Below are positions 1 through 36,075 of a stretch of 64,000 nucleotides of DNA, in pieces (within the stretch, counting starts at the first letter, position 1; the number at the start of each line of letters is the position of its first letter). The stretch is from a virus. The notes below the pieces were generated by a model, which was not told the DNA's origin, ran no database searches, and worked only from the letters and a program-made list of their open reading frames with translations. The stretch is taken from IMG/VR virus record IMGVR_UViG_3300024239_000016, positions 32,001 to 96,000 of that record, one strand, 5' to 3'. The translations under genes and the position numbers were made by a program.

Positions 1-2079
1 CTTACGGCGGTTAGTTCTGCGGAAACCAAAGCCTTCGTAATCCGGACTATTTTCAATTCCAGAAGAGTCAAAGTTAGCACCAGACATGTAATCGTACAAC
101 TGCTGCTTATTGAGGTTGCCTTCAGAATCAAGAAGGCCAGTAGCCTTTAGTTCGTCAGCATAACCAGCGTTGATTAGCGTCTGCAAGACCATCTGCTGGT
201 GATCCATTTGACCGGAGCTGTTCCTGTAGAGCTCTTGGAATTTGGATCGCTTATCCGAAAATCCATTAGTCTGCAGCGCTTTCCCGCTTTCATCGTAACC
301 AAATTTATTACGGAAAATAGCAGTTAGCTTATCAGCGTCATCGCCAGTAATGCCAGCGCGCAAATATGCATCGGTGTCGGTGTAACGGCGAGCATCGCTA
401 TTCTTCCCATGAATAGAGTCCTCCATTAACAAGTTGAAGAATTTATCACGAGCTTCTCTGGATACATTCGAGTTTTCATCGAATAGATAGTTCTCCAAAG
501 CTTCCTTGTTGTTCGCGATATTGGCACGAGTGCTCTGATTGATTACCTTACTAAAGACGGTGTCCGTCATTTGTTTCTTAGAGACGAACTCATCTTTGAA
601 ATGATCGTAAGTAATCATCTCAACGTTGGTGTTCCCAGTACGCAGCATTGTGAGCTCACGTAACTGACGAGCTAGCAATTCCGGGATTACTTTATTGATT
701 GTCTTGTCGGTCTTAGCCGTATAGATCGCATTCCCTTGTAGGTCACCCACGCCTAGTTTACTAAGCGCTACATCGGGAGACATATTTGGGAAGAGATCTT
801 TGAGCGCTCGTACAAATGGCAACGAATCACCAGCTGTGCTTTCCCTGAAGGCATCAGCGGCCCCAGGAATATCGCCAGCATACCGCAGACCTTCTTTAGT
901 AAAGTAGTGAAACTTCTGTGCGTATTTATTATTACGCAAGAAGTTTCCAACAGGGCTTTTACGTGAACGCTTTCCGAGCTCCATCATGAATTTCTCCATG
1001 ATGCCCTGCCCAGCTTGTTCAGAGAGCATATCGGTCATGCTCATTCCGTCGCCCATACCGGCCATGCTATCCATCATCTCAGCCTGATCGCCAAGAGCAT
1101 CCATCGCCATTGTGCCGGTTTCAAATGCCTCGCGCAACCGATCCATCTTCTCGCTCATGGCGCTCTTGAGATTAGCTCCAAACTTCTCCATGAATTCACG
1201 AGAACGATTACCGACATTATCGAGAGACTTCCCAATAAAGCGATTTCTGACAGCTTCACCGAAACGCTCGCTTGCTCGCAATTTAGCGTACTCAGGCAAA
1301 GCGGTATTCCGCATGATGCCATCAAGGCGCTGCATAGTCTCAGCAGCAAATCTACGTCCGTCATTTAGCGACTCAGCCTGCAAACTCAACATTCGCAAAT
1401 TGATCTCTAAACTCTTACGCTGATAATTGACAGTAACCGAGGTATTGTAGTTATCGATATTCTGCGAGGAGATACGGATGGCATTCAGGTACTTGACAGC
1501 TTCATTGTGCTGAAGCCCAAGCATCTTGTTACCGATTGCTGTCTGAACCAATTGCTGTTGCGCTAATGCAGTTTGAGCTTGACCTTGCCCCATTGCCATG
1601 GCGACTTGATTCTGGAGAGCAAGCTCGCGCAACTCGTCGGGAGACGGCCCACGACTACCATTATCACCTGACGGTAGTTTGGCAGCAAAGGCATCTATCT
1701 TAATGCCAATACCACCAGGTAGTTCCTTACCAATCGCAGGCAGAGCACGCTTAGCGCTCTTCGAAAGATCCCTAAATGCAGGATCTAATTCTTTAAGACT
1801 TTTATCGTATAGATCCCTGGCGACCGAGACGCCTTGGCTGAAAGCACGATCGACTTCCCCGAACTCTCTTGGAAGAGCTTTCAGGATAACTTTCTTGATA
1901 GTTCCGAAACCAGTGAGTGCATTAAAAGCACCACGGAACACACCACGACCTACTTTCGTAATAGCTGAGCGTTCGTCTGCTTTAGGCTCTTGGTACAGTG
2001 AGTCGTAACTTTCGAACTTGAAATCCAAGTCCATGTCGACATCAAAGTTATCCATCGCCATTCGTTCTTTTCTTGCCAT
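1..2079 (-). CDS. Large virion tail protein, phiKZ gp181-like (tape-measure/structural peptidoglycan hydrolase), N-terminal part; runs off the left edge
   Basis: Open frame from ATG 2079 (RBS AGAGGA) to base 1 (MARKERMAMDNFDVDMDLDF...YQRKSLEINLRML...NTALPEYAK). It is absent from the ORF track because no stop lies in the window. Divergent from the vRNAP beta' gene, as phiKZ gp181/gp180 are. Confidence 0.75.
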   Translation of the reverse strand, partial: MARKERMAMDNFDVDMDLDFKFESYDSLYQEPKADERSAITKVGRGVFRGAFNALTGFGTIKKVILKALPREFGEVDRAFSQGVSVARDLYDKSLKELDPAFRDLSKSAKRALPAIGKELPGGIGIKIDAFAAKLPSGDNGSRGPSPDELRELALQNQVAMAMGQGQAQTALAQQQLVQTAIGNKMLGLQHNEAVKYLNAIRISSQNIDNYNTSVTVNYQRKSLEINLRMLSLQAESLNDGRRFAAETMQRLDGIMRNTALPEYAKLRASERFGEAVRNRFIGKSLDNVGNRSREFMEKFGANLKSAMSEKMDRLREAFETGTMAMDALGDQAEMMDSMAGMGDGMSMTDMLSEQAGQGIMEKFMMELGKRSRKSPVGNFLRNNKYAQKFHYFTKEGLRYAGDIPGAADAFRESTAGDSLPFVRALKDLFPNMSPDVALSKLGVGDLQGNAIYTAKTDKTINKVIPELLARQLRELTMLRTGNTNVEMITYDHFKDEFVSKKQMTDTVFSKVINQSTRANIANNKEALENYLFDENSNVSREARDKFFNLLMEDSIHGKNSDARRYTDTDAYLRAGITGDDADKLTAIFRNKFGYDESGKALQTNGFSDKRSKFQELYRNSSGQMDHQQMVLQTLINAGYADELKATGLLDSEGNLNKQQLYDYMSGANFDSSGIENSPDYEGFGFRRTNRRK

Positions 2080-25737: not shown

Positions 25738-27240
25738 ATGCTTCAACAGAATTTACAGGTCCTGGCAAGTGCTCTTGGTCTTGATATTCATTATCTTCGT
25801 GAAAACGGCGGCGATCTCTCACAGCTGAGTGATGGTGACAAGACAAGCCTAGTAGCAGCACTGAACTCATTAAAAGAATACGCAAATTCTTACTTGGATG
25901 GCGTCATTCATGACGCATCTCAGTCGTCAGATCACGCGTACTCATCCAACAAGATTGAAGCCACTATTCAGTCAGCGATTGACCTGATCAAGGTAGGCGC
26001 TCCCGAGGCATACGACACGCTGAAGGAAATCGCTGACTACATCGCTCAAGATCAGACACAGATGTCAGGTATTTTGACATCGATGGAAAAGCTTGTGCGC
26101 TACGATCAGACCATGTCTTTGACTGAGCCGGAAAAGGCAAACCTTCACAACACTCTTGCCCTGGCCATCAGTCAGATTGGCATCGAGAGCATCTACGCCG
26201 GCTTCCAGCCCAAGCAATTCAAAGATGTGGAATTCTACGTTCCTCACTCTCTAGGCGGACGTATCTTCCAGATCATTGGCGATGATGTCTCGCAGGTAGC
26301 TATCGCCAACACATCGACACGTGCCCCGTATCCACCGAATCAGTTCATCAGCACTGAGTTCAGTAGCGATGGCGAGTTCTTCCTCTCGCATGAAGGTTAC
26401 CTGTCCGGTTATCCGAAGGTTCGTGTTGTGGCCCACAAGCGCAATGCCAATGGCACATTTGCAGAAACTGGCTATTACGATAACGTCCTTGCTCAATCCA
26501 TGCTGGCAAGTAAGCAGTATCCAAAGGTCGTCTACAAGCAGACTGCAAATCAAACTCAAAACTGGGCTCAGATCCTCGGCGTTAATGCGATTGATCGCAG
26601 CGATCCAGTTCAGCCTGTTGCAGCCGCCATCCATGGCAAAATGGCAGAAACTCGCGATGGTAGTAAACTAGCTGTCGCTATGGCTAATGGCAGTCTGCAT
26701 ATCCTCAGTGTTACGGATGGCAATCCGATGTCTTTTGCTCAGGCTGGTTCTGTGCCGGCTTCGCAATTCACAAATGCGATTTGCAATAACAGTATGGCAT
26801 TTAGCCCGGATGGCAAGATCCTAGCAGGCGCTTCGCGATACAATGCAACGAAGCAACTGGCTATTGTGGCTACTAGCGGTGGCGATTTTACTCAGCGCGT
26901 TTTACATGCGTTTGATACCGAGCAGGCGCTCCAGCCACGACTCTTCTGGGTTGACTCCAACACCATCGTTGTACAACAGAATACCAACTTGCAATTCTAC
27001 CGTATTCTGTTCGATGGAGTGAATGTCAGCGTGAGTCTCGTCAAGACGCTACCAGTGCCAGTCGGTATGATCATCGACGGCGTGACCGATGACGGCCGGC
27101 ATATCTTCATGCGTACTTTGGCAGGAGGAATGCGAATTCTTCGCCATGTCAGTGATTACCAGTACGATGTTCTTGCCAATATCACCACTGGTCCGACCAC
27201 ACTGGAATTGTCGCACACAAACTCTCGCCTTCTCGATTAA
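25738..27240 (+). CDS. Putative virion fibre/decoration protein: coiled-coil N-terminus plus beta-propeller-like C-terminus
   Basis: DKTSLVAALN, YSSNKI and GAPEAYDTLKEIAD motifs typical of phage fibre proteins; repeated FSxDG blades. Confidence 0.6.
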   Translation: MLQQNLQVLASALGLDIHYLRENGGDLSQLSDGDKTSLVAALNSLKEYANSYLDGVIHDASQSSDHAYSSNKIEATIQSAIDLIKVGAPEAYDTLKEIADYIAQDQTQMSGILTSMEKLVRYDQTMSLTEPEKANLHNTLALAISQIGIESIYAGFQPKQFKDVEFYVPHSLGGRIFQIIGDDVSQVAIANTSTRAPYPPNQFISTEFSSDGEFFLSHEGYLSGYPKVRVVAHKRNANGTFAETGYYDNVLAQSMLASKQYPKVVYKQTANQTQNWAQILGVNAIDRSDPVQPVAAAIHGKMAETRDGSKLAVAMANGSLHILSVTDGNPMSFAQAGSVPASQFTNAICNNSMAFSPDGKILAGASRYNATKQLAIVATSGGDFTQRVLHAFDTEQALQPRLFWVDSNTIVVQQNTNLQFYRILFDGVNVSVSLVKTLPVPVGMIIDGVTDDGRHIFMRTLAGGMRILRHVSDYQYDVLANITTGPTTLELSHTNSRLLD

Positions 27241-27352
27241 GTCGATATTCTATACATCACTACCGGGCAATGCCCGGTAGTGATGTATTTTTTTATAAAA
27301 ACATATTACTTTACTGATTTCCTACCATTGTTAATTTGGGAGAAGCAAATAC

Positions 27353-27733
27353 ATGAACAACCGACGCATTCGTCTCAAATCAATTCGCGCGAAGCTTTAT
27401 AAAGAGAACTGTATTATTCCGACCATAATCAGGAATGGTAAAGTCCTACGCAGAGCTCAACTGCGTTACGCCTACATCGAAAGCCGCCCACGTAAAAACA
27501 ATAAATCAAAACACAAATACGATACCTTTGCACATATCACATGCCCAAGTTGCGATGGCTTTGCTAGTCAGTACCGCTATGCCGAAACCGAAGAAGAACA
27601 AGCATATGAAGAAAAACAAATGTTGAAGCGCGGAGGCATTTTTCCGTATGCTGACATGTACGCATGTCGTGCAAAAATCGGCAATGGTGTATGTAGTAGC
27701 GGTTATAGCAACAAGCGCTATCGGTTTTCTTAG
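27353..27733 (+). CDS. Basic hypothetical protein with CxxC
   Basis: RBS GGAG, CATATTAC upstream, 126 aa. Confidence 0.7.
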   Translation: MNNRRIRLKSIRAKLYKENCIIPTIIRNGKVLRRAQLRYAYIESRPRKNNKSKHKYDTFAHITCPSCDGFASQYRYAETEEEQAYEEKQMLKRGGIFPYADMYACRAKIGNGVCSSGYSNKRYRFS

Positions 27734-27779
27734 TGATTTAATTCGCAGCACATTTATGTGATGTAAAGTAACAAACAAA

Positions 27780-28460
27780 GGGCACCTGCTAATAAACTAT
27801 CGGTAGTCAACGTGGCTGGCTATTAGAAATAATACCACGCTGCGATGGCGTAACGATAGAGTCGAAAGAAGCATAAAACATCTATTCATTTTGGCACGCG
27901 TAAAACCTTAAAAAGATAGATGGGTGAATCTGTTCAAAGTCGGCGAATGCTGCGTCCGTTAGGACACGCTAACGCCGAGCCAAAACAAGTTGTCCTATTC
28001 AGCCTAACCTACCTTTAGTCGGATGTACTTGACCGGTAGTATGGCGGGGATGTAAATGCTAGTTCAGGTAAAACACTACGGTGTAACTAGAATCTCGGGA
28101 GAGATCTAAAGACAGGCATTCTTGTGAGGTGTAGAGAGATGATGGACAGGACCTAAGTCTGCTGGCGATGATGTTTGTCGTTAAAACGAAGTTAACTCGA
28201 TAGTGATATGGATAAATTGCCTATCATGATGACCGTGTTAGCGTAAGGAAGCAGATATGGTAAAGGCGATCTCCGGACTACAACAATAGATGGACATGAC
28301 GCGTGCGTTGCGAGACAGCACAAATCACATACATCTCTGATCGTCGTAAGACGATGTAGTGAGTTTCCTTAAACTAAAAGTGCATCCCAGTGCTGGCCTT
28401 ATTAGCATTGCGTAGCCTGACAGCGTAACAGGTTAATTCTAGTTAAAGAAGAAAGTGCTC
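27780..28460 (+). ncRNA. Large structured RNA containing a group I ribozyme core (IC3/Azoarcus-like), copy A
   Basis: P3 CTGTTC 27930-35/GGACAG 28144-49; P4 TCGGCG 27940-45/CGCCGA 27973-78; P6 GCC/GGT; P7 G(A)GAGAT 28134-40/ATCTCC 28269-74; P8 ACC/GGT; P9 ACTACA 28277-82/TGTAGT 28355-60; no ORF. Confidence 0.85.
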
Positions 28461-28498
28461 ATGGATTAATACTAGGTAATCGCATCCATGACAGATGT

Positions 28499-28583
28499 GC
28501 CCAGGTGGCGAAATTGGTAGACGCACCAGATTTAGGTTCTGGCGCCTTCGGGTGTAGGGGTTCGATTCCCCTCTTGGGCACCA
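28499..28583 (+). tRNA. trnL: tRNA-Leu(TAG)
   Basis: Cloverleaf, anticodon arm CCAGA-TTTAGGT-TCTGG, long variable arm, encoded CCA. Confidence 0.95.
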
Positions 28584-28585
28584 AA

Positions 28586-28673
28586 GGAGATATGGCTGAG
28601 TGACTTAAGGTACTCCCCTGCTAAGGGAGCGTACAGAAATGTATCGTTGGCTCGAATCCAACTATCTCCGCCA
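28586..28673 (+). tRNA. trnS: tRNA-Ser(GCT)
   Basis: Anticodon arm CTCCC-CTGCTAA-GGGAG, long variable arm, G73, CCA; the T-loop starts with C. Confidence 0.92.
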
Positions 28674-28696
28674 AGAATTCAATAGTTGTTTTCATT

Positions 28697-29221
28697 GTGA
28701 GGGATCGAATGAAAAATCGTGTCAGTAAATACTTGACTAAGAAGTGCGCTCTGGAACTGCGTATCGTAATTGAGAATTTCAATTACGATAAAATCACCGA
28801 TGTTCAGCACATGACCGGTGTGACCGGTAGGCTTTGGCAAGCAGTTGGCTCGGAATTTGATGCACTCCAGTTAATTTTAATTGATTTTGAGCTGCTCCCA
28901 GATAACAAAACCGAAGCTACCTGCTATATTTTCGTGAGTATCGGCTACAATCCATCTGATGCTCTGCCCGCGTTACATCAGCTCCAGTTGTTTATTGACA
29001 AATACTCAGCGCGACTTGCCGATACAGACGTAACTCCCGCTAAGCTTCGTATGGATGGGGTATCAAAAGCATTTCGCTTACAAGCATCAAAGCGCGCCGA
29101 ATTTTTAGGTGATAAACTTGACGCCTCTATTTTCTTCAATCCTTTGCGTAAGAAAGTGTTGCGTGTCATTGCGGATGTGCACGAAAACTGCACAGGAACT
29201 CTGTGCATTGAGCTAAAGTAA
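28697..29221 (+). CDS. Hypothetical protein between tRNAs (start may be ATG 28709)
   Basis: 174 aa with protein-like composition. Confidence 0.7.
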   Translation: MRDRMKNRVSKYLTKKCALELRIVIENFNYDKITDVQHMTGVTGRLWQAVGSEFDALQLILIDFELLPDNKTEATCYIFVSIGYNPSDALPALHQLQLFIDKYSARLADTDVTPAKLRMDGVSKAFRLQASKRAEFLGDKLDASIFFNPLRKKVLRVIADVHENCTGTLCIELK

Positions 29222-29226
29222 AGACC

Positions 29227-29300
29227 GCCCCCGTAGCATGAAGGTCGTGCAGTTGATTTGTAATCATCAGGTGACAGTTCGATTCTGTCCGGGAGCACCA
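29227..29300 (+). tRNA. trnT: tRNA-Thr(TGT)
   Basis: Anticodon loop TTTGTAA, T-arm GACAG-TTCGATT-CTGTC, CCA; one mismatch each in the acceptor and anticodon stems. Confidence 0.88.
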
Positions 29301-29328
29301 ATTTAAAATTTCAATCAGGAGAATTACC

Positions 29329-29517
29329 ATGTGGCCAGATCCAGCATGGTACTTCGATGATTTAAGTATTTTCAAATACTGGGTAGATCAATTCTATTCG
29401 ATGGCTTGCAAACTCCGCTCCATCTTTAGCTGGCAGGCTGAAGAGGACCCATCCGTTACTGCCATGACGGAAGACGGTAGCAAGCTCGATTGGAAATTAC
29501 CGCCCCTTCGGGGGTAA
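29329..29517 (+). CDS. Possible small ORF (62 aa) embedded in structured RNA
   Basis: RBS AGGAG plus ATG, but enclosed by a 15/16-bp long-range helix. Confidence 0.4.
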   Translation: MWPDPAWYFDDLSIFKYWVDQFYSMACKLRSIFSWQAEEDPSVTAMTEDGSKLDWKLPPLRG

Positions 29518-29790
29518 TCATCAGAGTACCACACAAACCGGAACCAGTTCCTGTACCGGTAGCTTTAAGCTCAATAGCCTCGTAGGAGGGTGAGGGATAG
29601 TTAATGGGCGCTATATCGACTTTGTCGTGATACCCATGAAATCGGTTAGCAGAGCCGATGGGCGACTTCTGTTAGTATCAAGCGTTGAGGCTATGTTCAG
29701 GATTGTATTTGGGCATTCGACCATCTGTTTTAGATGTCTGGTTCGACTCCAGTAATGATACGATCTAGGGATCCCTTGGGTCCCTATTCT
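29330..29790 (+). ncRNA. Candidate structured RNA upstream of tRNA-Leu(TAA)
   Basis: Helices 29347-62/29516-31 and 29574-81/29687-94; T-arm-like CTGG-TTCGACT-CCAG at 29738-52. Confidence 0.5.
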
Positions 29791-29834
29791 AAAGTGATTT
29801 ATTTTACAATTATTTTAGAATAGTAAACTTTAAT

Positions 29835-29919
29835 CCGCGGGTGGCGAAATTGGTAGACGCATGAGACTTAAAATCTCACACCGAAAGGTATATGGGTTCG
29901 ACTCCCATACCGCGGACCA
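29835..29919 (+). tRNA. trnL: tRNA-Leu(TAA), intron-less
   Basis: Anticodon arm TGAGA-CTTAAAA-TCTCA, variable arm, T-arm, CCA. Confidence 0.93.
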
Positions 29920-29950
29920 TATCTTCTTAATCAACGAAAGAAAGAAAATT

Positions 29951-30298
29951 ATGTCACGTAAAGAACATAAAGGTCAAAAATTCGATCTTGCTTACGGCGT
30001 AGATCGCTATAGTGGGGCTTTCGTTCAGCTCTTCCAATCTCCGATGGACGATCAAGATGGCGCTTTCCTCAACGTGGATTCCCACGGAGTGCGTCTCGAT
30101 GAAGATCATCCCGAACTGCCCACTGAGCTCACCAAAGTGATCTCGGGGCTGAAATTGGCTTTCTGCCGTTATAAGGAAGCTCACAACGATAATCCGAATC
30201 TCTCGGTCGATCATGTGCTGCATGTTGCCCGCGCAGCTGATCAATTCGATACCTTCTCGGAAAAAGAAGTGTATCAGGTCTTTGGCGATAACGCTTGA
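29951..30298 (+). CDS. Hypothetical protein
   Basis: ATG 29951; the ORF-track start lies inside the tRNA. Confidence 0.75.
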   Translation: MSRKEHKGQKFDLAYGVDRYSGAFVQLFQSPMDDQDGAFLNVDSHGVRLDEDHPELPTELTKVISGLKLAFCRYKEAHNDNPNLSVDHVLHVARAADQFDTFSEKEVYQVFGDNA

Positions 30299-30309
30299 AA
30301 AAAAAAAAG

Positions 30310-30877
30310 CATGTGCTCGCTATTGTCTGAATAGTAAAGAAAGCACGGACTTACTGAGTCCGATAGTGAGGCAGTCCTGCATTGTCGTCAGATCAAGGCC
30401 TATTCATGATAGGTACAGTTTGACATCAGACTCTGGCAGTTAGGCTGATCAGAAGTGGAGCCGTGATAGTTCCGGATTTCGCAAAACCCTCAGATTACTT
30501 CTGTGGTCAGATGCGAGAGATGATGGAGTACCAGTGTCGAAGAGTGTGCGAGGGTGAACCTAGCGCTCTTAAACGGTCGACTAAATCAGAACTGATATTT
30601 GGCTATCGGCGATGAGGATTGGTTTAGAATCATGCCAATGTTCGAAATCCAAGTTCAAGGAGTTTATTGGGTAGTGATGAGAGAACTATCCTAGATACGT
30701 TTTCTCATCACTAGAACAGACGACATCCAGGCGAAACTGGGTTAAGTGAACTAGACCCACCAATCCATAGCACATAGGTGAATACGCACTCCCTTAGGTC
30801 TAGAGTGTCAGTAGTTCGCGCGGACTACCTCGACAGCATCGCCCTTGCAAAGCGGTGCTGTCCTGGAAGTGCGCATG
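30310..30877 (+). ncRNA. Large (about 570 nt) structured RNA directly upstream of tRNA-Pro
   Basis: Terminal helix CATGTGC 30310-16/GCGCATG 30871-77; 15-bp stem 30672-86/30699-713; stems 30616-23/30759-66 and 30832-42/30852-62; no credible ORF. Confidence 0.7.
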
Positions 30878-30884
30878 AAATTGT

Positions 30885-30961
30885 CCGTTCGTAGCGCAGC
30901 CTGGTAGCGCATCTGTTTTGGGAACAGAGGGTCGCAAGTTCGAATTTTGCCGGGCGGACCA
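30885..30961 (+). tRNA. trnP: tRNA-Pro(TGG)
   Basis: Anticodon arm TCTGT-TTTGGGA-ACAGA, C1-G72, A73, CCA. Confidence 0.95.
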
Positions 30962-30985
30962 TTCTTATTTTACCAAGAGGTAATC

Positions 30986-31228
30986 ATGCAATCAAACCAT
31001 AAAAAAGATGGCGTTGAAGCAATAAAAGAGCTGATCAAAGAAGTATGGAATACGCTCAAACGGCTTATCGAAGACTGTTTCATTAAACTGATGCAAAAGC
31101 ACATCAGGTGCTCTAGCAAAAAGAATTGGGTAGCGCGCAGCTCAAGTATTTTTTCTTTGGGCGACCGCAAATTACTTGGCATCAGGCGACATACCCCTGA
31201 TCGTTGGCTAGGTTATATTCGGAATTAG
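30986..31228 (+). CDS. Hypothetical protein
   Basis: RBS GAGGT, ATG 30986. Confidence 0.65.
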   Translation: MQSNHKKDGVEAIKELIKEVWNTLKRLIEDCFIKLMQKHIRCSSKKNWVARSSSIFSLGDRKLLGIRRHTPDRWLGYIRN

Positions 31229-31249
31229 TAACATTGGGAGCGGTGTAAC

Positions 31250-31675
31250 ATGAATCTTCATTTCACATCCCCTAGCGTTGGGAGCGATGTATGGATTGTC
31301 AAGGAGGATAAAATCCTTGGCACTGGCGCTGTAGTGGGATTTGATGGACAAGATCGACTGAGTGTGATGTTAAAAGACGCTGCAGCGAACGATCTACTTC
31401 CTCTGACTACCGATGACTTAAAAAGCATTGGTTATGGTTATTTATTTATCGGCTATGATGCGAATACGTGCGATTTACATCGTAATCAGGCAATAGTCGA
31501 TCTTATCAAAGATGACAGCCCTCTAATTGGCACTTCCATTGTTGATAAATTTAAACTCCGCTATGGTCTTGTTAACGACCGTTTCAAAAATGTCCCTGGT
31601 TATCGCGAAGCGTGCATCATGGAAGTCGGCCAGTCATTGACTGAACTACCCCAGAGGTCCTGTGATGGTGCGTAG
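31250..31675 (+). CDS. Hypothetical protein
   Basis: RBS GGAG, 141 aa. Confidence 0.75.
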   Translation: MNLHFTSPSVGSDVWIVKEDKILGTGAVVGFDGQDRLSVMLKDAAANDLLPLTTDDLKSIGYGYLFIGYDANTCDLHRNQAIVDLIKDDSPLIGTSIVDKFKLRYGLVNDRFKNVPGYREACIMEVGQSLTELPQRSCDGA

Positions 31676-32219
31676 AATATTTCAGAGCAGGGATTTACCG
31701 TGGCGTCAGCGTGTTACAATTGTTGTTGTCAACGATAACGGGAATGTCCTCATCGCTAATCAGCCCCCGTTACCGCCTTATAACGAAAAAATGCTGACCC
31801 TACCTGGAGGCGGCATTGAGCCAGGACAGACTCCAGAAGAGGCAGTAGCAGCTGAGCTTCTTGAAGAGGTTGGCGTCAAAGTAAGCGGCATTCAGGTACT
31901 TGACTGTCATACATTCGAAGAGCCGTTTACCGTGCTAAAGCCAGGAGAAGGTACCCCAGTTCAAATCGAGCGTCGCAAGTTGTTTAAAGGCGTACAATCT
32001 GTTGCTTATTTTGCCAAGTTCGAACGCACCATCAATGGTGGTAAAGGCACTGGCAATGATGCAATGGAATGGGAATGGTATCCGTTCCATAGGGCTACTG
32101 GAATAATGCTCGCTCAGCGTGCCCTGGCAATTAAAACTGGAAGAAATGGAAAGCTCCATATGTTCATGGCAGACGCGATCAGGGTCGCTAAAGACCATTT
32201 TTATAAAATAGAAAGCTAA
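31662..32219 (+). CDS. Nudix hydrolase with a divergent Nudix box
   Basis: LPGGGIEPGQTPEEAVAAELLEEVG. Confidence 0.85.
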   Translation: MMVRRIFQSRDLPWRQRVTIVVVNDNGNVLIANQPPLPPYNEKMLTLPGGGIEPGQTPEEAVAAELLEEVGVKVSGIQVLDCHTFEEPFTVLKPGEGTPVQIERRKLFKGVQSVAYFAKFERTINGGKGTGNDAMEWEWYPFHRATGIMLAQRALAIKTGRNGKLHMFMADAIRVAKDHFYKIES

Positions 32220-32249
32220 ACTGCTCGCTAGTATGAGCGGGTGAAGCTT

Positions 32250-33230
32250 CAATTAGGGCATTACCGAAAAATACGCTGGTAGTAGTGAAGAGATTCTTGT
32301 ATCGATGACAGATAGCTGTCGGTATTTCCGTGTCATGGCGGATAGATCAGCGAGTACTTTACACGGAACAGCGTAACCGAAAGGCGGTAAAACAACACCA
32401 TGAAAGCGGACATCCGCGCGCACATGTGTAGTACCGGTCATACAGACCGGAACGAGCTACTCTGACGCGATGGAAAAAATGGGCTGCCATAGTGGAGAAC
32501 TCTTAGTAGTGTTTAGGATAGCTGTGAGACAATGAAGCTCAGTCGCCAGGTTGAGTGGAGTCATCCTTGAAATAGCAGCCATAAACGGAGTTCAGTTGAA
32601 TGCAGTGTGATGAATCGTACGCCGCGTGGCCAGGCGATGAAATCACATTCCTCGGAAAGTCGGCGAATGTTTGATGTGTAAGGCCGTTGGGTCTCCGTGA
32701 GAGCGGAGACTGGAACAAGGTGAAACGGCGTTGAGTCGTCAGTGCTAAACTAACGAACAACGAGGCTGGGTCGAAAGATGCCGCTTACTGGATGTTCGAA
32801 TCGTCCCACAATACTAACGCCGAGCCAAGTCTGTGTGATCCGTAATGGGAAAATCGCCTCTGTAAAAAAGTCCAGTGTGCGAGGATGCTGTTGCGAACTA
32901 TCAGAAAGGTGTAGAGAGTAGACCCGAGGGACCTAAAACAATTTGTCGATAATAGCTATTGGATCACTTCATCGCGCGCCGCGGGGTGTTGGTCTAGTAA
33001 CAGGTAGCTTAGATGGGTTGTCATGGTAGAGGCGTATTCCAGACCACAAACAAAATCAGGGCTCCTAAAGAAAGAGTAACGCCTGTTTCTGGTAGTGAAA
33101 ACTATAGTGGTAGGCTTCCTAAGCCTGTATCTCCTGTTCTAGACATAGGGGATGGTTTCTTCAATAGAAGCAGTACCACGAGATAATATCGGTATTCTTA
33201 GATACTATCGTAAAACTCGTGCACAAAGAG
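32250..33230 (+). ncRNA. Very large structured RNA containing a group I ribozyme core (IC3/Azoarcus-like), copy C; ends approximate
   Basis: P3 CCTCGG 32650-55/CCGAGG 32924-29; P4 TCGGCG 32660-65/CGCCGA 32818-23; P6 GCC/GGT; P7 G(A)GAGTA 32914-20/TATTCC 33035-40; P8 ACC/GGT plus ACAATTT/GGGTTGT; P9 ACCAC 33043-47/GTGGT 33107-11; no ORF. Confidence 0.87.
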
Positions 33231-33237
33231 TTCAGTA

Positions 33238-33325
33238 GGGGGTTTGGCAGAGCGGTCGATTGCACTGGTCTTGAAAACCAGCGATGGGAAACCATCCGTG
33301 AGTTCGAATCTCACAGCCCCCGCCA
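33238..33325 (+). tRNA. trnS: tRNA-Ser(TGA)
   Basis: Anticodon arm CTGGT-CTTGAAA-ACCAG, long variable arm, G73, CCA. Confidence 0.96.
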
Positions 33326-33330
33326 ACAAA

Positions 33331-33875
33331 GGAGATCTGATTGCGAAGTCTTGGTCGTAAAGTTTTAATTCTTACGGCCTCGTGTCTTTTGGCAGCTACG
33401 TTTCCTCTTATCGTTTTTGGATTAAGCAACAAAGCTCAATCTGTCGTATGCTTACCGTCCCAGTTAGTAGGACTGGATAACAGTAGTTCAGTACGGAAAG
33501 CAGATAGCTGGTTAAGTGATGTTGATGAACAATCGGCACGCCTTGCCGATCCGCAGCGCCCTATCAGCGCATATAACCCAAATCGCCTAAGAGCTAATGC
33601 AAGACATGGTAAGGGACCATGAGTCTGCACCCAAACTACACCAGGTCACGTGTAAACACTCACAAACAAATACCACTCGTGTGGTAGAGCGTTAGAAGCT
33701 AAAGCTATGGTAGCCGAAGATGATTGTGGATCGTACATCGAACATAATTCCTGATCAGAGTTACGATCGATAAGATGCGACCATTGAAGACTCAGAGCCA
33801 ACCAACGATTACGCTATAAAGAAGCAAAGGATTTATCCGAGCGCACTGTGTCGCATTAAAGGTGGATCCGACAGT
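33331..33875 (+). ncRNA. Candidate large structured RNA directly downstream of tRNA-Ser(TGA)
   Basis: Long-range pairs 33352-59/33776-83, 33406-13/33768-75 and 33382-88/33601-07; many local hairpins; followed by a 13-bp hairpin at 33881-33910. Confidence 0.55.
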
Positions 33876-33975
33876 TTCAATTGCAGACTGAGAAAGCTCT
33901 CAGTCTGCAATCCAGTTTGTATCTTACCGTGTACCAACTGGATTGCACGACTGTGTAAAAGTTAGATAGAGATAA

Positions 33976-34185
33976 ATGCCAAAATTTACTTTACATCAGT
34001 ATAAATTAGTCAATTGCTCTTTAGCTAAAGCTCTTGGCGACAACAGCGCTAAAACCGTAATTGACCTTGCAAGAGGTCGAGTGTGCCCAATTTGCCATAA
34101 TTATAAAAATGGCGGATGCGCGGCTTCTCGTAAATTGTTGGAGTTAAGAATGAACAAAAAAATTAACGACGAGATCCCACTGTAG
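33976..34185 (+). CDS. Small hypothetical protein with CxxC
   Basis: 69 aa, CPIC. Confidence 0.5.
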   Translation: MPKFTLHQYKLVNCSLAKALGDNSAKTVIDLARGRVCPICHNYKNGGCAASRKLLELRMNKKINDEIPL

Positions 34186-34241
34186 CGTTCAGCGAGAATG
34201 CCAAAAGATAGTCTTTTGGACGCTGAGCGCGGGAGAGAATC

Positions 34242-34496
34242 TTGTCCAGATCACTGCGTGTGTATAAAACCAAAGTTAAGAAATTGGCTAGGTTAAAAAG
34301 GATTACTGCCAAGAGTTACGCTGCCATCGGTTTTGTAAAGGTAAACGTTCTGTTACAGACTCCTAAAATCTGTAGTTGTCATATGTGCGGCAATGCAAGA
34401 AAGCACTATAGGCGCCGCACGCTTAAAGAAGAGCGCGACCTTGTTGATTACAAGGAGCAGCTTAAGAGCCTTTCGTTGATCCCTTCCTACAGGTAG
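34242..34496 (+). CDS. Small basic protein with TPK-x-CSCxMCGNxRK motif
   Basis: Motif recognised from small phage/bacterial proteins; TTG start after GGGAG. Confidence 0.65.
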   Translation: MSRSLRVYKTKVKKLARLKRITAKSYAAIGFVKVNVLLQTPKICSCHMCGNARKHYRRRTLKEERDLVDYKEQLKSLSLIPSYR

Positions 34497-34499
34497 ACT

Positions 34500-34805
34500 A
34501 ACTTGGGTGATTGTAGGAGTAGCCCAAAAATAAGCCGTAACAAGCTGGGAAGAAAACCCAGTACCATTTTAGCGAATGGTGAGGAGTGTTACGGAGCCAT
34601 GATGAGTTATTTTAACCAACGACCAATCAGGATTCTCGAATCTAAATGCGACATATGGCCTTAGTGACATCATAGCGGCTGACCACTCGGCAATATATGG
34701 CTGGCCGGCCCGGTCCCTGGCGCGATCCGCGAGTGCTCGCGGATATCCGCCGCTGCCGACTTGTTGCAAATAGATGGATCCAGATGTAACTCAATATTGG
34801 TGTAC
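34500..34805 (+). ncRNA. Candidate structured RNA (about 300 nt)
   Basis: Stems 34535-42/34587-94, 34604-10/34786-92 and 34687-92/34754-59, hairpin 34725-44; followed by terminator hairpin 34808-31. Confidence 0.5.
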
Positions 34806-34911
34806 CGCAGCACGCCCCTAGGGGCGTGCTGTAGTTAATTTATTTTTTATTTATTTTAGAAAATTCTTTTATTAATTTTTAATAAAAGAATCTTTTATAA
34901 GGAACAAAATC

Positions 34912-35757
34912 ATGGGAAAAGAAGCTAATGTGACTAAGCCACTAGCTGTTATAATTAAAGGTAACCCAAAGTACCTTGATAAGAAAGAAATCAAACCAAT
35001 CGCCGATGAATTTTACAAGACAGTAAAAAATCTTCTTGAAGAACAAGGCTTCCATGTAACCTTTGACAGTGGCGAGGATTTCACCAAACCGGATATTGCT
35101 GCCAAGGTATGGGTAGCGCATTCGCGTGGAATTGGAAGATTACAATATGCACCGGATCATATCAAAACCGTAGCTTTAGATACCAAAAATGGAAAAGATG
35201 GCACTGACCCAAAGCATTATCAGCTTTCTTCTAAGGATATAAAAAACCTCAATAGTTTAAAAGAAGAACCCTCGTCCGGTACGGTGCCATTGACATTAAA
35301 TCTTCTCGACGAATACATCAAGTTCAGGCAACAATCGCATAAAGAGAGCGATTATGTGAACGCTCTCTCGAAAAATGATGCTGTGAAACAAATCAGTGAG
35401 CAAAACAAGGACAACAAAACAGCTCTAGTTGCTCTGAAGGACGGAGAAATTGTCGGTCAGCTATTTGTTACTGCGCCGACTAAAAAACGCAATATAGCGA
35501 TCATCAATCTGATCTCGGTTCTAGAATCTGAGCAAGGAACCGGATTAGCGCATCGTTTGATGAAGAAAGCTATCTGGATCGCGGAAGACGCTGATTGCGA
35601 CAAACTTCAGCTGATTGTCAATAATAAAAATGAAAAGGCAATCAAGTTTTACAAAAAACACAATTTCAAGCCAATTAACAATTACTCAACTCGCGCCACT
35701 ACTTATGAACTCGATCTTCCTTATGATCGAGACTTAGGCGATCACGAATACAGATAA
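34912..35757 (+). CDS. Two-domain protein: small alpha/beta-hydrolase-like N-terminus plus GNAT acetyltransferase C-terminus
   Basis: AHSRG elbow-like motif; V..SEQGTGLAHRLM (acetyl-CoA motif A) and N.KAIKFYKKHNF. Confidence 0.75.
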   Translation: MGKEANVTKPLAVIIKGNPKYLDKKEIKPIADEFYKTVKNLLEEQGFHVTFDSGEDFTKPDIAAKVWVAHSRGIGRLQYAPDHIKTVALDTKNGKDGTDPKHYQLSSKDIKNLNSLKEEPSSGTVPLTLNLLDEYIKFRQQSHKESDYVNALSKNDAVKQISEQNKDNKTALVALKDGEIVGQLFVTAPTKKRNIAIINLISVLESEQGTGLAHRLMKKAIWIAEDADCDKLQLIVNNKNEKAIKFYKKHNFKPINNYSTRATTYELDLPYDRDLGDHEYR

Positions 35758-35760
35758 GCT

Positions 35761-36075
35761 ATGAAAAACGCACAGAAAATACACACGACAACAGCTGAAG
35801 AAATAAAAGCAGCTGTAATAGCGGCAGGGGTAAGTTCAACCAAATTAAGGGAATGTAGCATCTGTGGAACGAAGTTATTTTATTCGTTTGATCAAGAAGT
35901 AATTAGAAACTCCGATGAGAAGGGAGTCTTCTTCACATCAGAATGTGAGTGCACTTCTTTCGGAGTTGCTCCGCAGCCAAGAACGTGGGAAGATATCGCG
36001 TTTTTGATTAATTTACAAATCACCACCGAGAACTACAATAAGGCTCGCCAACTCTTTTTCTTAGATCCAATCTAA
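35761..36075 (+). CDS. Hypothetical protein, possible Zn ligands (CSIC, CEC)
   Basis: 104 aa. Confidence 0.7.
   Translation: MKNAQKIHTTTAEEIKAAVIAAGVSSTKLRECSICGTKLFYSFDQEVIRNSDEKGVFFTSECECTSFGVAPQPRTWEDIAFLINLQITTENYNKARQLFFLDPI

Follow-up and report, generated by a model that had tools for sequence, protein, structure and literature searches.

To our knowledge, group I ribozymes are known almost solely as introns. A second RNA that matters here, the L1 stalk of 23S rRNA (helices H76-H78), holds the binding site of the ribosomal protein uL1 at the junction of H77 and H78. Its double T-loop docks the elbow of tRNA via a platform of residues 2112 and 2169, a device for elbow stacking that is also used by RNase P and by Stem I of T-box RNAs (PMC3664808), and in assays of group I splicing uL1 itself proved one of the strongest RNA chaperones (PMC1920258). 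Here we analyze a locus in which a group I core and a copy of the L1 stalk occur together, in a predicted single non-coding RNA of about 990 nt (32250-33237, designated copy C) within the tRNA island of a large phage. The locus belongs to the window, a stretch of 64,000 nt corresponding to bases 32001-96000 of the 194-kb IMG/VR virus record IMGVR_UViG_3300024239_000016 (completeness estimated at 73%), whose numbering is used below; a second group I core in the window (27779-28498) is designated copy A.

A group I core of the tRNA-intron type

The core makes up the 3' two-thirds of the copy C RNA and, judged by sequence comparison, is a group I ribozyme of the tRNA-intron type, IC3-like and with its paired (P) and joining (J) elements in the canonical order. 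The window has two occurrences of the motif GGTGTAGAGAnnnGAnnnnnnnnACCTAA (28128 and 32908; zero expected). At least 119 viral contigs carry the motif, and ARAGORN, with introns allowed, identified 111 of these loci as tRNA genes whose anticodon loop is interrupted by an intron of about 200 nt. ARAGORN called 70 of these 111 split phage tRNA genes tRNA-Leu-taa (loci L002-L120 and L181-L188). A profile built with nhmmer from 73 phage tRNA introns produced three collinear blocks on copy C, 33019-33116 (E 5.4e-8), 32902-41 (E 5e-5) and 32808-38 (E 0.15), the last being weak and in line with the stronger two; the same profile also matches copy A. A covariance model of 24 phage tRNA introns (CM R1), searched with filters off over the 7.5 kb from 27000 to 34500, scored copy C at 31 bits (E 4e-8) and copy A at 25.8 bits, with nothing else in that range below E 0.1. 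These searches are partially circular, the introns having been retrieved with motifs from the window; the alignments reach well past those motifs. Insertions distort the 5' half of copy C in the full-length CM alignment, which was therefore not used to place P1 or P2. The matches and pairings uphold an earlier note on this DNA, made from its letters, which had called a group I ribozyme core with large peripheral insertions. By homology, the core descends from the compact introns of about 200 nt (Azoarcus/cyanobacterial, IC3-like) that interrupt tRNA genes within the tRNA arrays of phages.

The group I model of Rfam (RF00028, Intron_gpI) gave no match to the window, either at the gathering score or at E up to 10. 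When ten real phage tRNA introns were tested, that model passed one, and because it misses nine of ten introns of this type its silence has little weight against a group I assignment. The Rfam group I seed alignment contains no bacterial intron (Williams, bioRxiv 10.1101/2020.01.27.920355).

The catalytic parts are consistently conserved. Copy C, copy A and G001, the only full homologue found (see below), all have the guanosine pocket (G, bulged A, G-C), and the rest of P7 varies among the three with compensation (GAGTA/TATTC, GAGAT/ATCTC and GACCA/TGGTC, respectively). The 5' strand of P7 in copy C reads the G, bulged A and G of the guanosine-binding pair, and GAGTA/TATTC, which pairs with one G.U, is also the P7 of real tRNA introns (L181, L160). 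The segments J3/4, J4/5 (AA) and J5/4 (AA) are likewise kept in copy C, J8/7 has 6 nt as in real introns, and the P3-J3/4-P4 layout is common to copy A, G001 and real introns. Between P4 (32660-65) and P4' (32818-23) there are 152 nt, compared with about 37 nt in real tRNA introns; the P5 insertion therefore comes to roughly 115-150 nt, in agreement with the size of about 140 nt initially given for it. At the opposite end, the 3' end of the core, GGTAGTGAAAACTATAGTGGTAGG, is identical to that of the tRNA introns in L181 and L184-L188, whose next base opens the tRNA 3' exon. Real introns end in ...TATAGTGGTAGG, and G33114 aligns with the terminal G of the 111 tRNA introns. Since its 3' end is the same as in these introns, G33114 is the homologue of the terminal guanosine, as had been predicted; in the predicted fold it is paired within a hairpin.

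Copy A, an orphan core as well, lies upstream of tRNA-Leu(tag); its P5 is compact, its P6 measures about 150 nt, its P8 and P9 are expanded, and it has no L1-stalk copy. The idea that copies A and C expanded independently fits the P5 insertion, unique to copy C, and P6, which is far larger in copy A, but not P8 and P9, which are expanded in both. In another phage (L160, ~800-1400, minus strand), a tRNA gene located about 380 nt upstream of that phage's own L1-stalk copy is apparently interrupted by an intron of about 500 nt with exactly the P7 of copy C.

Neither core could be assigned to a host gene. With introns of up to 3000 nt and lowered thresholds, ARAGORN placed neither copy C nor copy A inside a split tRNA; nothing 3' of 33114 resembles a tRNA 3' half, and the flanks are structured RNA. 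The interval 32220-33237 contains no credible open reading frame (ORF), the longest on the plus strand having 47 and 57 amino acids. The earlier descriptions of the stretch as ORF-less and as lacking a recognisable host gene thus hold.

The L1-stalk copy and the homologue G001

The other main component of copy C is a copy of the L1 stalk. The Rfam model LSU_rRNA_bacteria matched 32510-32581 with 50.4 bits (threshold 50; E 4.6e-12) over model positions 2135-2206, and all conserved single-stranded nucleotides of both T-loops and of the H77/H78 junction are present. By Rfam, no other segment of the large-subunit rRNA was found in the window or in the phage loci, and the full-length 23S rRNA context is absent. 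Alignment A3, which comprises 13 phage copies (the window and 12 others) and three rRNAs, exhibited covariation, with 90.9% of cells paired, double changes in 15 of the 18 pairs and none of 500 shuffles as good; slid controls reached 36-47%. Pairing is 100% in H77 and the lower H78 stem and 86.6% in upper H78, and the columns T22, G42, A43, C46, C54, A67, C70, T75 and C87 are invariant outside the search pattern. Because it brackets the L1-stalk match as helix 76 does in rRNA, the helix GAACTCT/GGAGTTC is, on these sequence grounds, the basal, helix-76-like stem of the copy. Its complementarity (32497-503 with 32587-93) and the U.G at its end had been correctly recognized, as had TTACCG 32261/CGGTAA 32385, TACGCTG 32272/CAGCGTA 32369 and GTGTGAT 32605/ATCACAT 32642. 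GGCTGC 32482 and GCAGCC 32575 are complementary as well, but this helix probably does not form because it competes with the better supported H77 (GCTGT/GCAGC) of the stalk copy.

A pattern scan of viral contigs yielded about 20 L1-stalk elements, with isolated copies in about 12 large-phage contigs. According to Rfam, the large-phage copies are isolated pieces of about 80 nt and not rRNA genes; several are within tRNA arrays, and each has its own basal stem, the stem sequences being unrelated. Four stand-alone copies (L124 4448-4507(+), L126 1648-1707(-), L134 4730-4789(-) and L160 395-454(-)) are located about 57 nt upstream of a same-strand tRNA-Arg in dense tRNA arrays, on contigs of 105-410 kb. 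Five further copies (L131 11902-11961, L153 10309-10369, L144 10628-10688, L136 2495-2553 and L151 3913-3972) lie inside ORF-free stretches of 0.5-1.9 kb in which model R1 detected no group I signal, and hence the module seems to have been grafted into several different phage non-coding RNAs. Recent capture from host 23S rRNA was ruled out, the best of 17 pattern-selected bacterial 23S stalks being identical at 63 of 72 positions. In a Candidatus Saccharibacteria metagenome-assembled genome, an L1-stalk-like match (L214 6002-6026) has flanks unlike the 23S flanks of the other bacterial matches.

G001 is encoded on a 205-kb phage contig (locus L173, ~985-1930) and scores 39.6 bits with R1. It shares with copy C the two conserved strings of the 5' domain (GCATYACCGAAAAATAC, at the 5' start, and GAAAGGCGGTAAA), the inner helix, P2, the core and the 3' end. 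Its P2 (AGTGATAG/CTATCACT) occupies the same place as in copy C, P3 (CTTCTC/GGGAAG) and P4 accompany the P7 given above, and ACCACAAAC...TATAGTGGTAGGCT occurs as in copy C. The 3' tail, five hairpins from the same G (folding z -8.2), is analogous to that of copy C and unrelated to it in sequence; in both RNAs the homologue of the terminal G is sequestered in the hairpin that opens the tail. The L1 copy of G001, with its own stem, sits between P4' and P7 within the P6 extension; its 5' domain directly adjoins P2, and no helix matching 32497/32587 precedes P2. Placed in P6, the stem of the L1 copy cannot be P1, and a 5' domain that adjoins P2 seems to belong to the fold and not to be an exon. 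The same module in the same ribozyme at two peripheral sites favors a functional link over a chance neighbor. No third member emerged when viral and metagenome collections were scanned with patterns: beyond G001, the 5'-domain patterns gave only chance matches inside coding regions (L189-L193), the P9 pattern returned G001 plus ordinary tRNA introns and nothing more, and no further RNA with the stalk in P6 came from a pattern that joined the L1 end with the R element.

Peripheral features and surroundings

The features of copy C and its flanks are collected in Table 1. The region upstream of the core, earlier seen as one structured 5' domain of roughly 400 nt, is indeed structured, but it is a composite of 32250-32395, 32396-32496 and the L1 copy (32497-32593) and not a single domain. 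Among the 5' helices quoted, only TACGCTG/CAGCGTA receives compensatory support, from a single homologue. Downstream of 33114, the hairpins first estimated at about 120 nt amount to 123 nt in four predicted hairpins, of which the first (AGGCTT/AAGCCT) pairs G33114 and the third is T-arm-like. AGAGTTC at 33227-33 is fully complementary to GAACTCT 32497-503. The 9-nt sequence GAGTTCAGT occurs twice, at 32588-32596 in the 3' strand of the stalk stem and at 33228-33236 just before tRNA-Ser; as an insertion scar it was ruled out, three 9-nt repeats in 1.1 kb being at chance level.

Table 1. Features of copy C and neighboring genes, with the basis of each assignment
Feature	Position	Strand	Basis or remark
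NUDIX hydrolase domain gene	31662-32219		upstream flank; E 4e-17
Conserved 5' domain	32250..32395	+	shared with G001 (L173 985-1142)
Outer helix TTACCG/CGGTAA	32261-66 / 32385-90	+	one mismatch in G001
Inner helix TACGCTG/CAGCGTA	32272-78 / 32369-75	+	still pairs in G001 via two double changes
Linker hairpins (e.g. CCGGTC...GACCGG), window copy only	32396..32496	+	minimum-free-energy fold only; absent from G001
23S rRNA L1-stalk copy (H76-H78)	32497..32593	+	Rfam match, alignment A3, isolated fold
Basal stem GAACTCT/GGAGTTC	32497-503 / 32587-93	+	closes isolated stalk fold
Stalk head, 72 nt	32510-32581	+	H77 GCTGT 32521-25/GCAGC 32576-80; H78 GCTCAGTC/GGTTGAGT; T-loops TAGGATAG, TTGAAATA
Guide-like TTGAATGCA	32596..32604	+	putative; by-eye comparison with alignment A4 and R1 consensus uuGaGugc
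P2 GTGTGAT/ATCACAT with inner hairpin	32605..32648	+	pairing checked; without the GAAA loop of real relatives
P3 5' CCTCGG, J3/4 AAA, P4 5' (G)TCGGCG	32650..32665	+	pairs CCGAGG 32924-29, CGCCGA 32818-23
P5 and extension, ~115-150 nt	32666..32817	+	P4-P4' distance compared with real introns
T-arm-like hairpin GGATG TTCGAAT CGTCC, perfect loop	32790-32806	+	in P5 extension
P4' CGCCGA(G), then P6 CCAAG...GAAAGG, extension ~55 nt	32818..32907	+	nhmmer 32808-32838, E 0.15
J6/7, P7 5' strand (G-A-GAGTA), P3' CCGAGG, P8 5' strand GACCTAAA	32908..32941	+	nhmmer E 5e-5; CM R1
P8 extension (~70 extra nt), P8' ATGGTA, J8/7 GAGGCG (6 nt), P7' TATTCC	32942..33042	+	nhmmer 33019-33116
P9 ACCAC/GTGGT, 33-nt insertion, conserved GGTAGTGAAAACTATAG GAAA-loop hairpin, G33114	33043..33114	+	homology to real introns
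3' tail, four hairpins, 123 nt	33115..33237	+	predicted fold
T-arm-like hairpin GTTTC TTCAATA GAAGC	33155-33171	+	in 3' tail
tRNA-Ser(tga)	33238..33325	+	ARAGORN and Rfam; same-strand downstream neighbor
GNAT acetyltransferase domain gene	34912-35757		downstream flank; E 4e-15

A scan of the 64 kb for hairpins with a 5-bp stem and a TTCRA loop detected nine, five in tRNA genes, two in the RNA and two elsewhere. Low-score ARAGORN calls of a "tRNA-Arg" at 33083-33156 and of a "tRNA-Val" over the P5 extension were unconvincing, with no counterpart in G001. The tRNA-like fold at 33083-33156 has an "anticodon" hairpin (TAGGC TTCCTAA GCCTG, with U33 and A37) that begins at the terminal G. The RNA fills the gap between the NUDIX-family ORF and tRNA-Ser(tga), in a tRNA island with a run of six plus-strand tRNA genes. 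When the 1-kb stretch was compared by blastn (distant mode) with 50,697 phage records, no match was obtained.

Readings of copy C and comparison with known systems

We lean, at slightly better than even confidence, toward copy C being not an ordinary intron but a domesticated ribozyme that stands free and serves as the scaffold for a module docking a tRNA-type elbow and/or binding uL1; this interpretation ranks above the intron models. The group I fold would serve as a stable body, possibly still self-processing, onto which the two-helix 5' domain, the extensions of P5, P6, P8 and P9, the 3' hairpin tail and the L1-stalk copy would have been grafted. The stalk module would be the functional part, stacking on a tRNA-type elbow and/or binding host uL1, and the elbow could be that of a tRNA in trans or, in cis, that of the RNA's own T-arm-like hairpins (32790-806 and 33155-71). 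Elbow docking appears likely because the copy keeps the whole head and not just the uL1 site; binding of uL1 is plausible, too. Any protein partner would be the host's, since Ribosomal_L1 (PF00687) is absent from the window's genome and from the five other L1-copy phages checked (six records). The comparisons show the homology of the core, the identity and covariation of the stalk, the missing host gene and the different graft site in G001; the partner of the stalk, any catalysis left in the core and the end of the transcript are what we infer.

Several observations weigh against the scaffold interpretation. At the equivalent of residue 2112, the window, G001, L131 and L151 have U in place of G. 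Minimum-free-energy folding gave z -0.75 for 32252-32610 and z -1.27 for the 3' tail, no better than shuffles, and the support must therefore come from sequence comparison; there, with just two members of the fused family found, little covariation is available for the 5' domain and the extensions. J8/7 of G001 has 3 nt (AAA; L173 1721-1735) compared with 6 nt in copy C, so the G001 core may be catalytically altered and the activities of the two RNAs may differ. The window core looks fully competent (J3/4, J4/5, 6-nt J8/7, G pocket, terminal G), which also fits a working intron, and the 32497/32587 helix does have its U.G at the correct end. T-arm-like hairpins were not seen beside the other phage L1 copies in 8 of 12 loci; in the remaining four, orphan T-arm matches were more than 900 nt away, apart from a match in L134 that probably belongs to the tRNA-Arg downstream. 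The 12 loci accordingly do not bear out the idea that phage L1 copies are generally accompanied by an orphan T-arm hairpin.

Any intron model requires a P1, for which there are three candidates: 32497/32587 (U.G end), 32590/32598 (C-G) and GCATT 32258-62/AATGC 32599-603. None of them is conserved in G001, and no P10 is evident for any. The rival that survives best, unlikely in our judgment, is an intron with P1 at the ancestral place (GTTC 32590-93/GAAT 32598-601) and splicing after C32593, whose host would be an L1-stalk small RNA upstream of tRNA-Ser, with the stalk as 5' exon. TTGAATGCA has the position and nearly the sequence of the real guide (TTGAGTGC, adjoining P2), with GAG changed to GAA, and ACGGAGTTC...TTGAATGCA resembles, in position and sequence, the exon end and guide (GGACTT...TTGAGTGC) of real introns, a resemblance judged by eye. 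This pairing puts C-G, not U.G, at the would-be splice site, and a sizeable class of tRNA introns carries C at -1 (bioRxiv 10.1101/2020.01.27.920355). The spacing of about 57 nt between L1 copy and tRNA in L124, L126, L134 and L160, as well as the recurrence of GAGTTCAGT at 32588 and 33228, just before tRNA-Ser, would also suit this model. However, its P1 has just 4 bp and a 4-nt loop without U.G, the 9-nt repeat is at the chance level given above, and a stalk inside the ribozyme, as in G001, does not fit it.

Next comes the model of the earlier note, which we consider improbable. It takes GAACTCT/GGAGTTC as P1 of a self-splicing intron with the 5' splice site after U32503. The L1 copy would then occupy the P1 loop as an insertion of 83 nt, and the 5' domain and the 3' hairpins would be the parts spliced together. 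The helix has 7 bp and a U.G at the expected end, the elements that dock P1 (J4/5 AA, J5/4 AA, 6-nt J8/7) and the terminal G are intact, and large P1-loop insertions are tolerated in other group I introns. Nevertheless, the helix brackets the 72-nt L1-stalk match, and every L1-stalk copy carries such a helix as helix 76; in G001 the stalk is in P6, with no equivalent helix before P2. The candidate guide is 11 nt from P2, whereas in real relatives the guide adjoins P2, and no P10 is evident. In addition, the supposed 5' exon is conserved in G001 as part of the fold, and G33114 is hairpin-sequestered in both RNAs. The P1 and splice-site assignment was thus probably wrong, and the structured 5' exon postulated with it is better regarded as a segment of the folded RNA.

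Equally improbable is decay, by which copy C would be a functionless orphan intron, the chance neighbor of an independent L1-stalk small RNA and other hairpins. The missing host gene, the degenerate guide (GAG to GAA), a P2 lacking the GAAA loop, the shortened J8/7 of G001 and the weak folding z-scores of the window RNA would agree with it. Yet two strongly diverged RNAs of about 0.9-1 kb, in gene-dense genomes, keep the 5' domain and the L1 copy, and both also retain the G pocket, the GAAA hairpin of P9, the 3' end and, through compensatory changes, the core helices; a second orphan core, copy A, is retained in the same genome. Least probable of all is a trans-acting, tRNA-directed ribozyme whose L1 head would clamp the elbow of a host or phage tRNA, in the manner of the RNase P specificity domain and T-box Stem I, while the core, which would ancestrally have recognized the anticodon stem-loop as P1/P10, cleaves, ligates or reverse-splices at the anticodon loop, an RNA-only counterpart of anticodon nucleases or tRNA repair enzymes if true; in a weaker variant, the stalk would dock the RNA's own T-arm-like hairpins, with the ribosomal E-site contact reused as a tertiary brace.

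If copy C is instead the free-standing scaffold that we favor, a conserved host-less core, expanded fourfold and fused to a tRNA-binding module, would represent a rare recruitment of a self-splicing core. Should the module bind tRNA or uL1, phages may use pieces of the ribosome as free RNAs for manipulating translation or tRNA metabolism. The two architectures, with the stalk before P2 or in P6, form a natural experiment on the role of the module.

Among described systems, the group I introns in tRNA anticodon loops (Azoarcus tRNA-Ile, cyanobacterial tRNA-Leu; IC3) have the same core blocks, helices and 3' end. Unlike them, copy C is without tRNA exons, about 3-4 times longer, without the GAAA loop in P2 and without a clear P1/P10; its terminal G is paired in a hairpin, and it has the extra 5' domain and the L1-stalk copy. 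With the L1 stalk of 23S rRNA (H76-H78), the copy shares the conserved unpaired nucleotides of the T-loops and junction as well as both helices, with covariation; in contrast to it, the copy is isolated, about 97 nt long, has U at the 2112 equivalent, and its basal stem is unrelated in sequence. The uL1 operators of the L11/L1 operon mRNAs are likewise non-ribosomal RNAs imitating the 23S uL1 site. Those operators imitate the H77/H78 junction only, whereas the window copy also keeps the whole elbow-docking head. Double T-loop modules are found, too, at the apex of T-box Stem I and in the specificity domain of RNase P (PMC3664808), and RNase P in addition has a catalytic core acting on tRNA. 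These two would be the closest functional analogy if the module grips tRNA, although here it is a near-copy of the ribosomal version. The lariat-capping ribozyme GIR1 is a group I core recruited beyond splicing; the core of copy C is of the canonical tRNA-intron type. GOLLD and ROOL are large structured RNAs near phage tRNA genes, as is copy C; the Rfam models of GOLLD, ROOL and GIR1 gave no match over 27000-36000 at E up to 10. In full-text searches of the literature, no paper was found on phage-encoded or stand-alone L1-stalk RNA, and the cryo-EM paper on Azoarcus pre-tRNA has nothing on elbow geometry. Taken singly, the tRNA-type group I core and the L1 stalk of copy C are of familiar kinds; we know of no earlier case in which an orphan, fourfold-expanded core of the tRNA type is joined to the tRNA-binding module of the ribosome.

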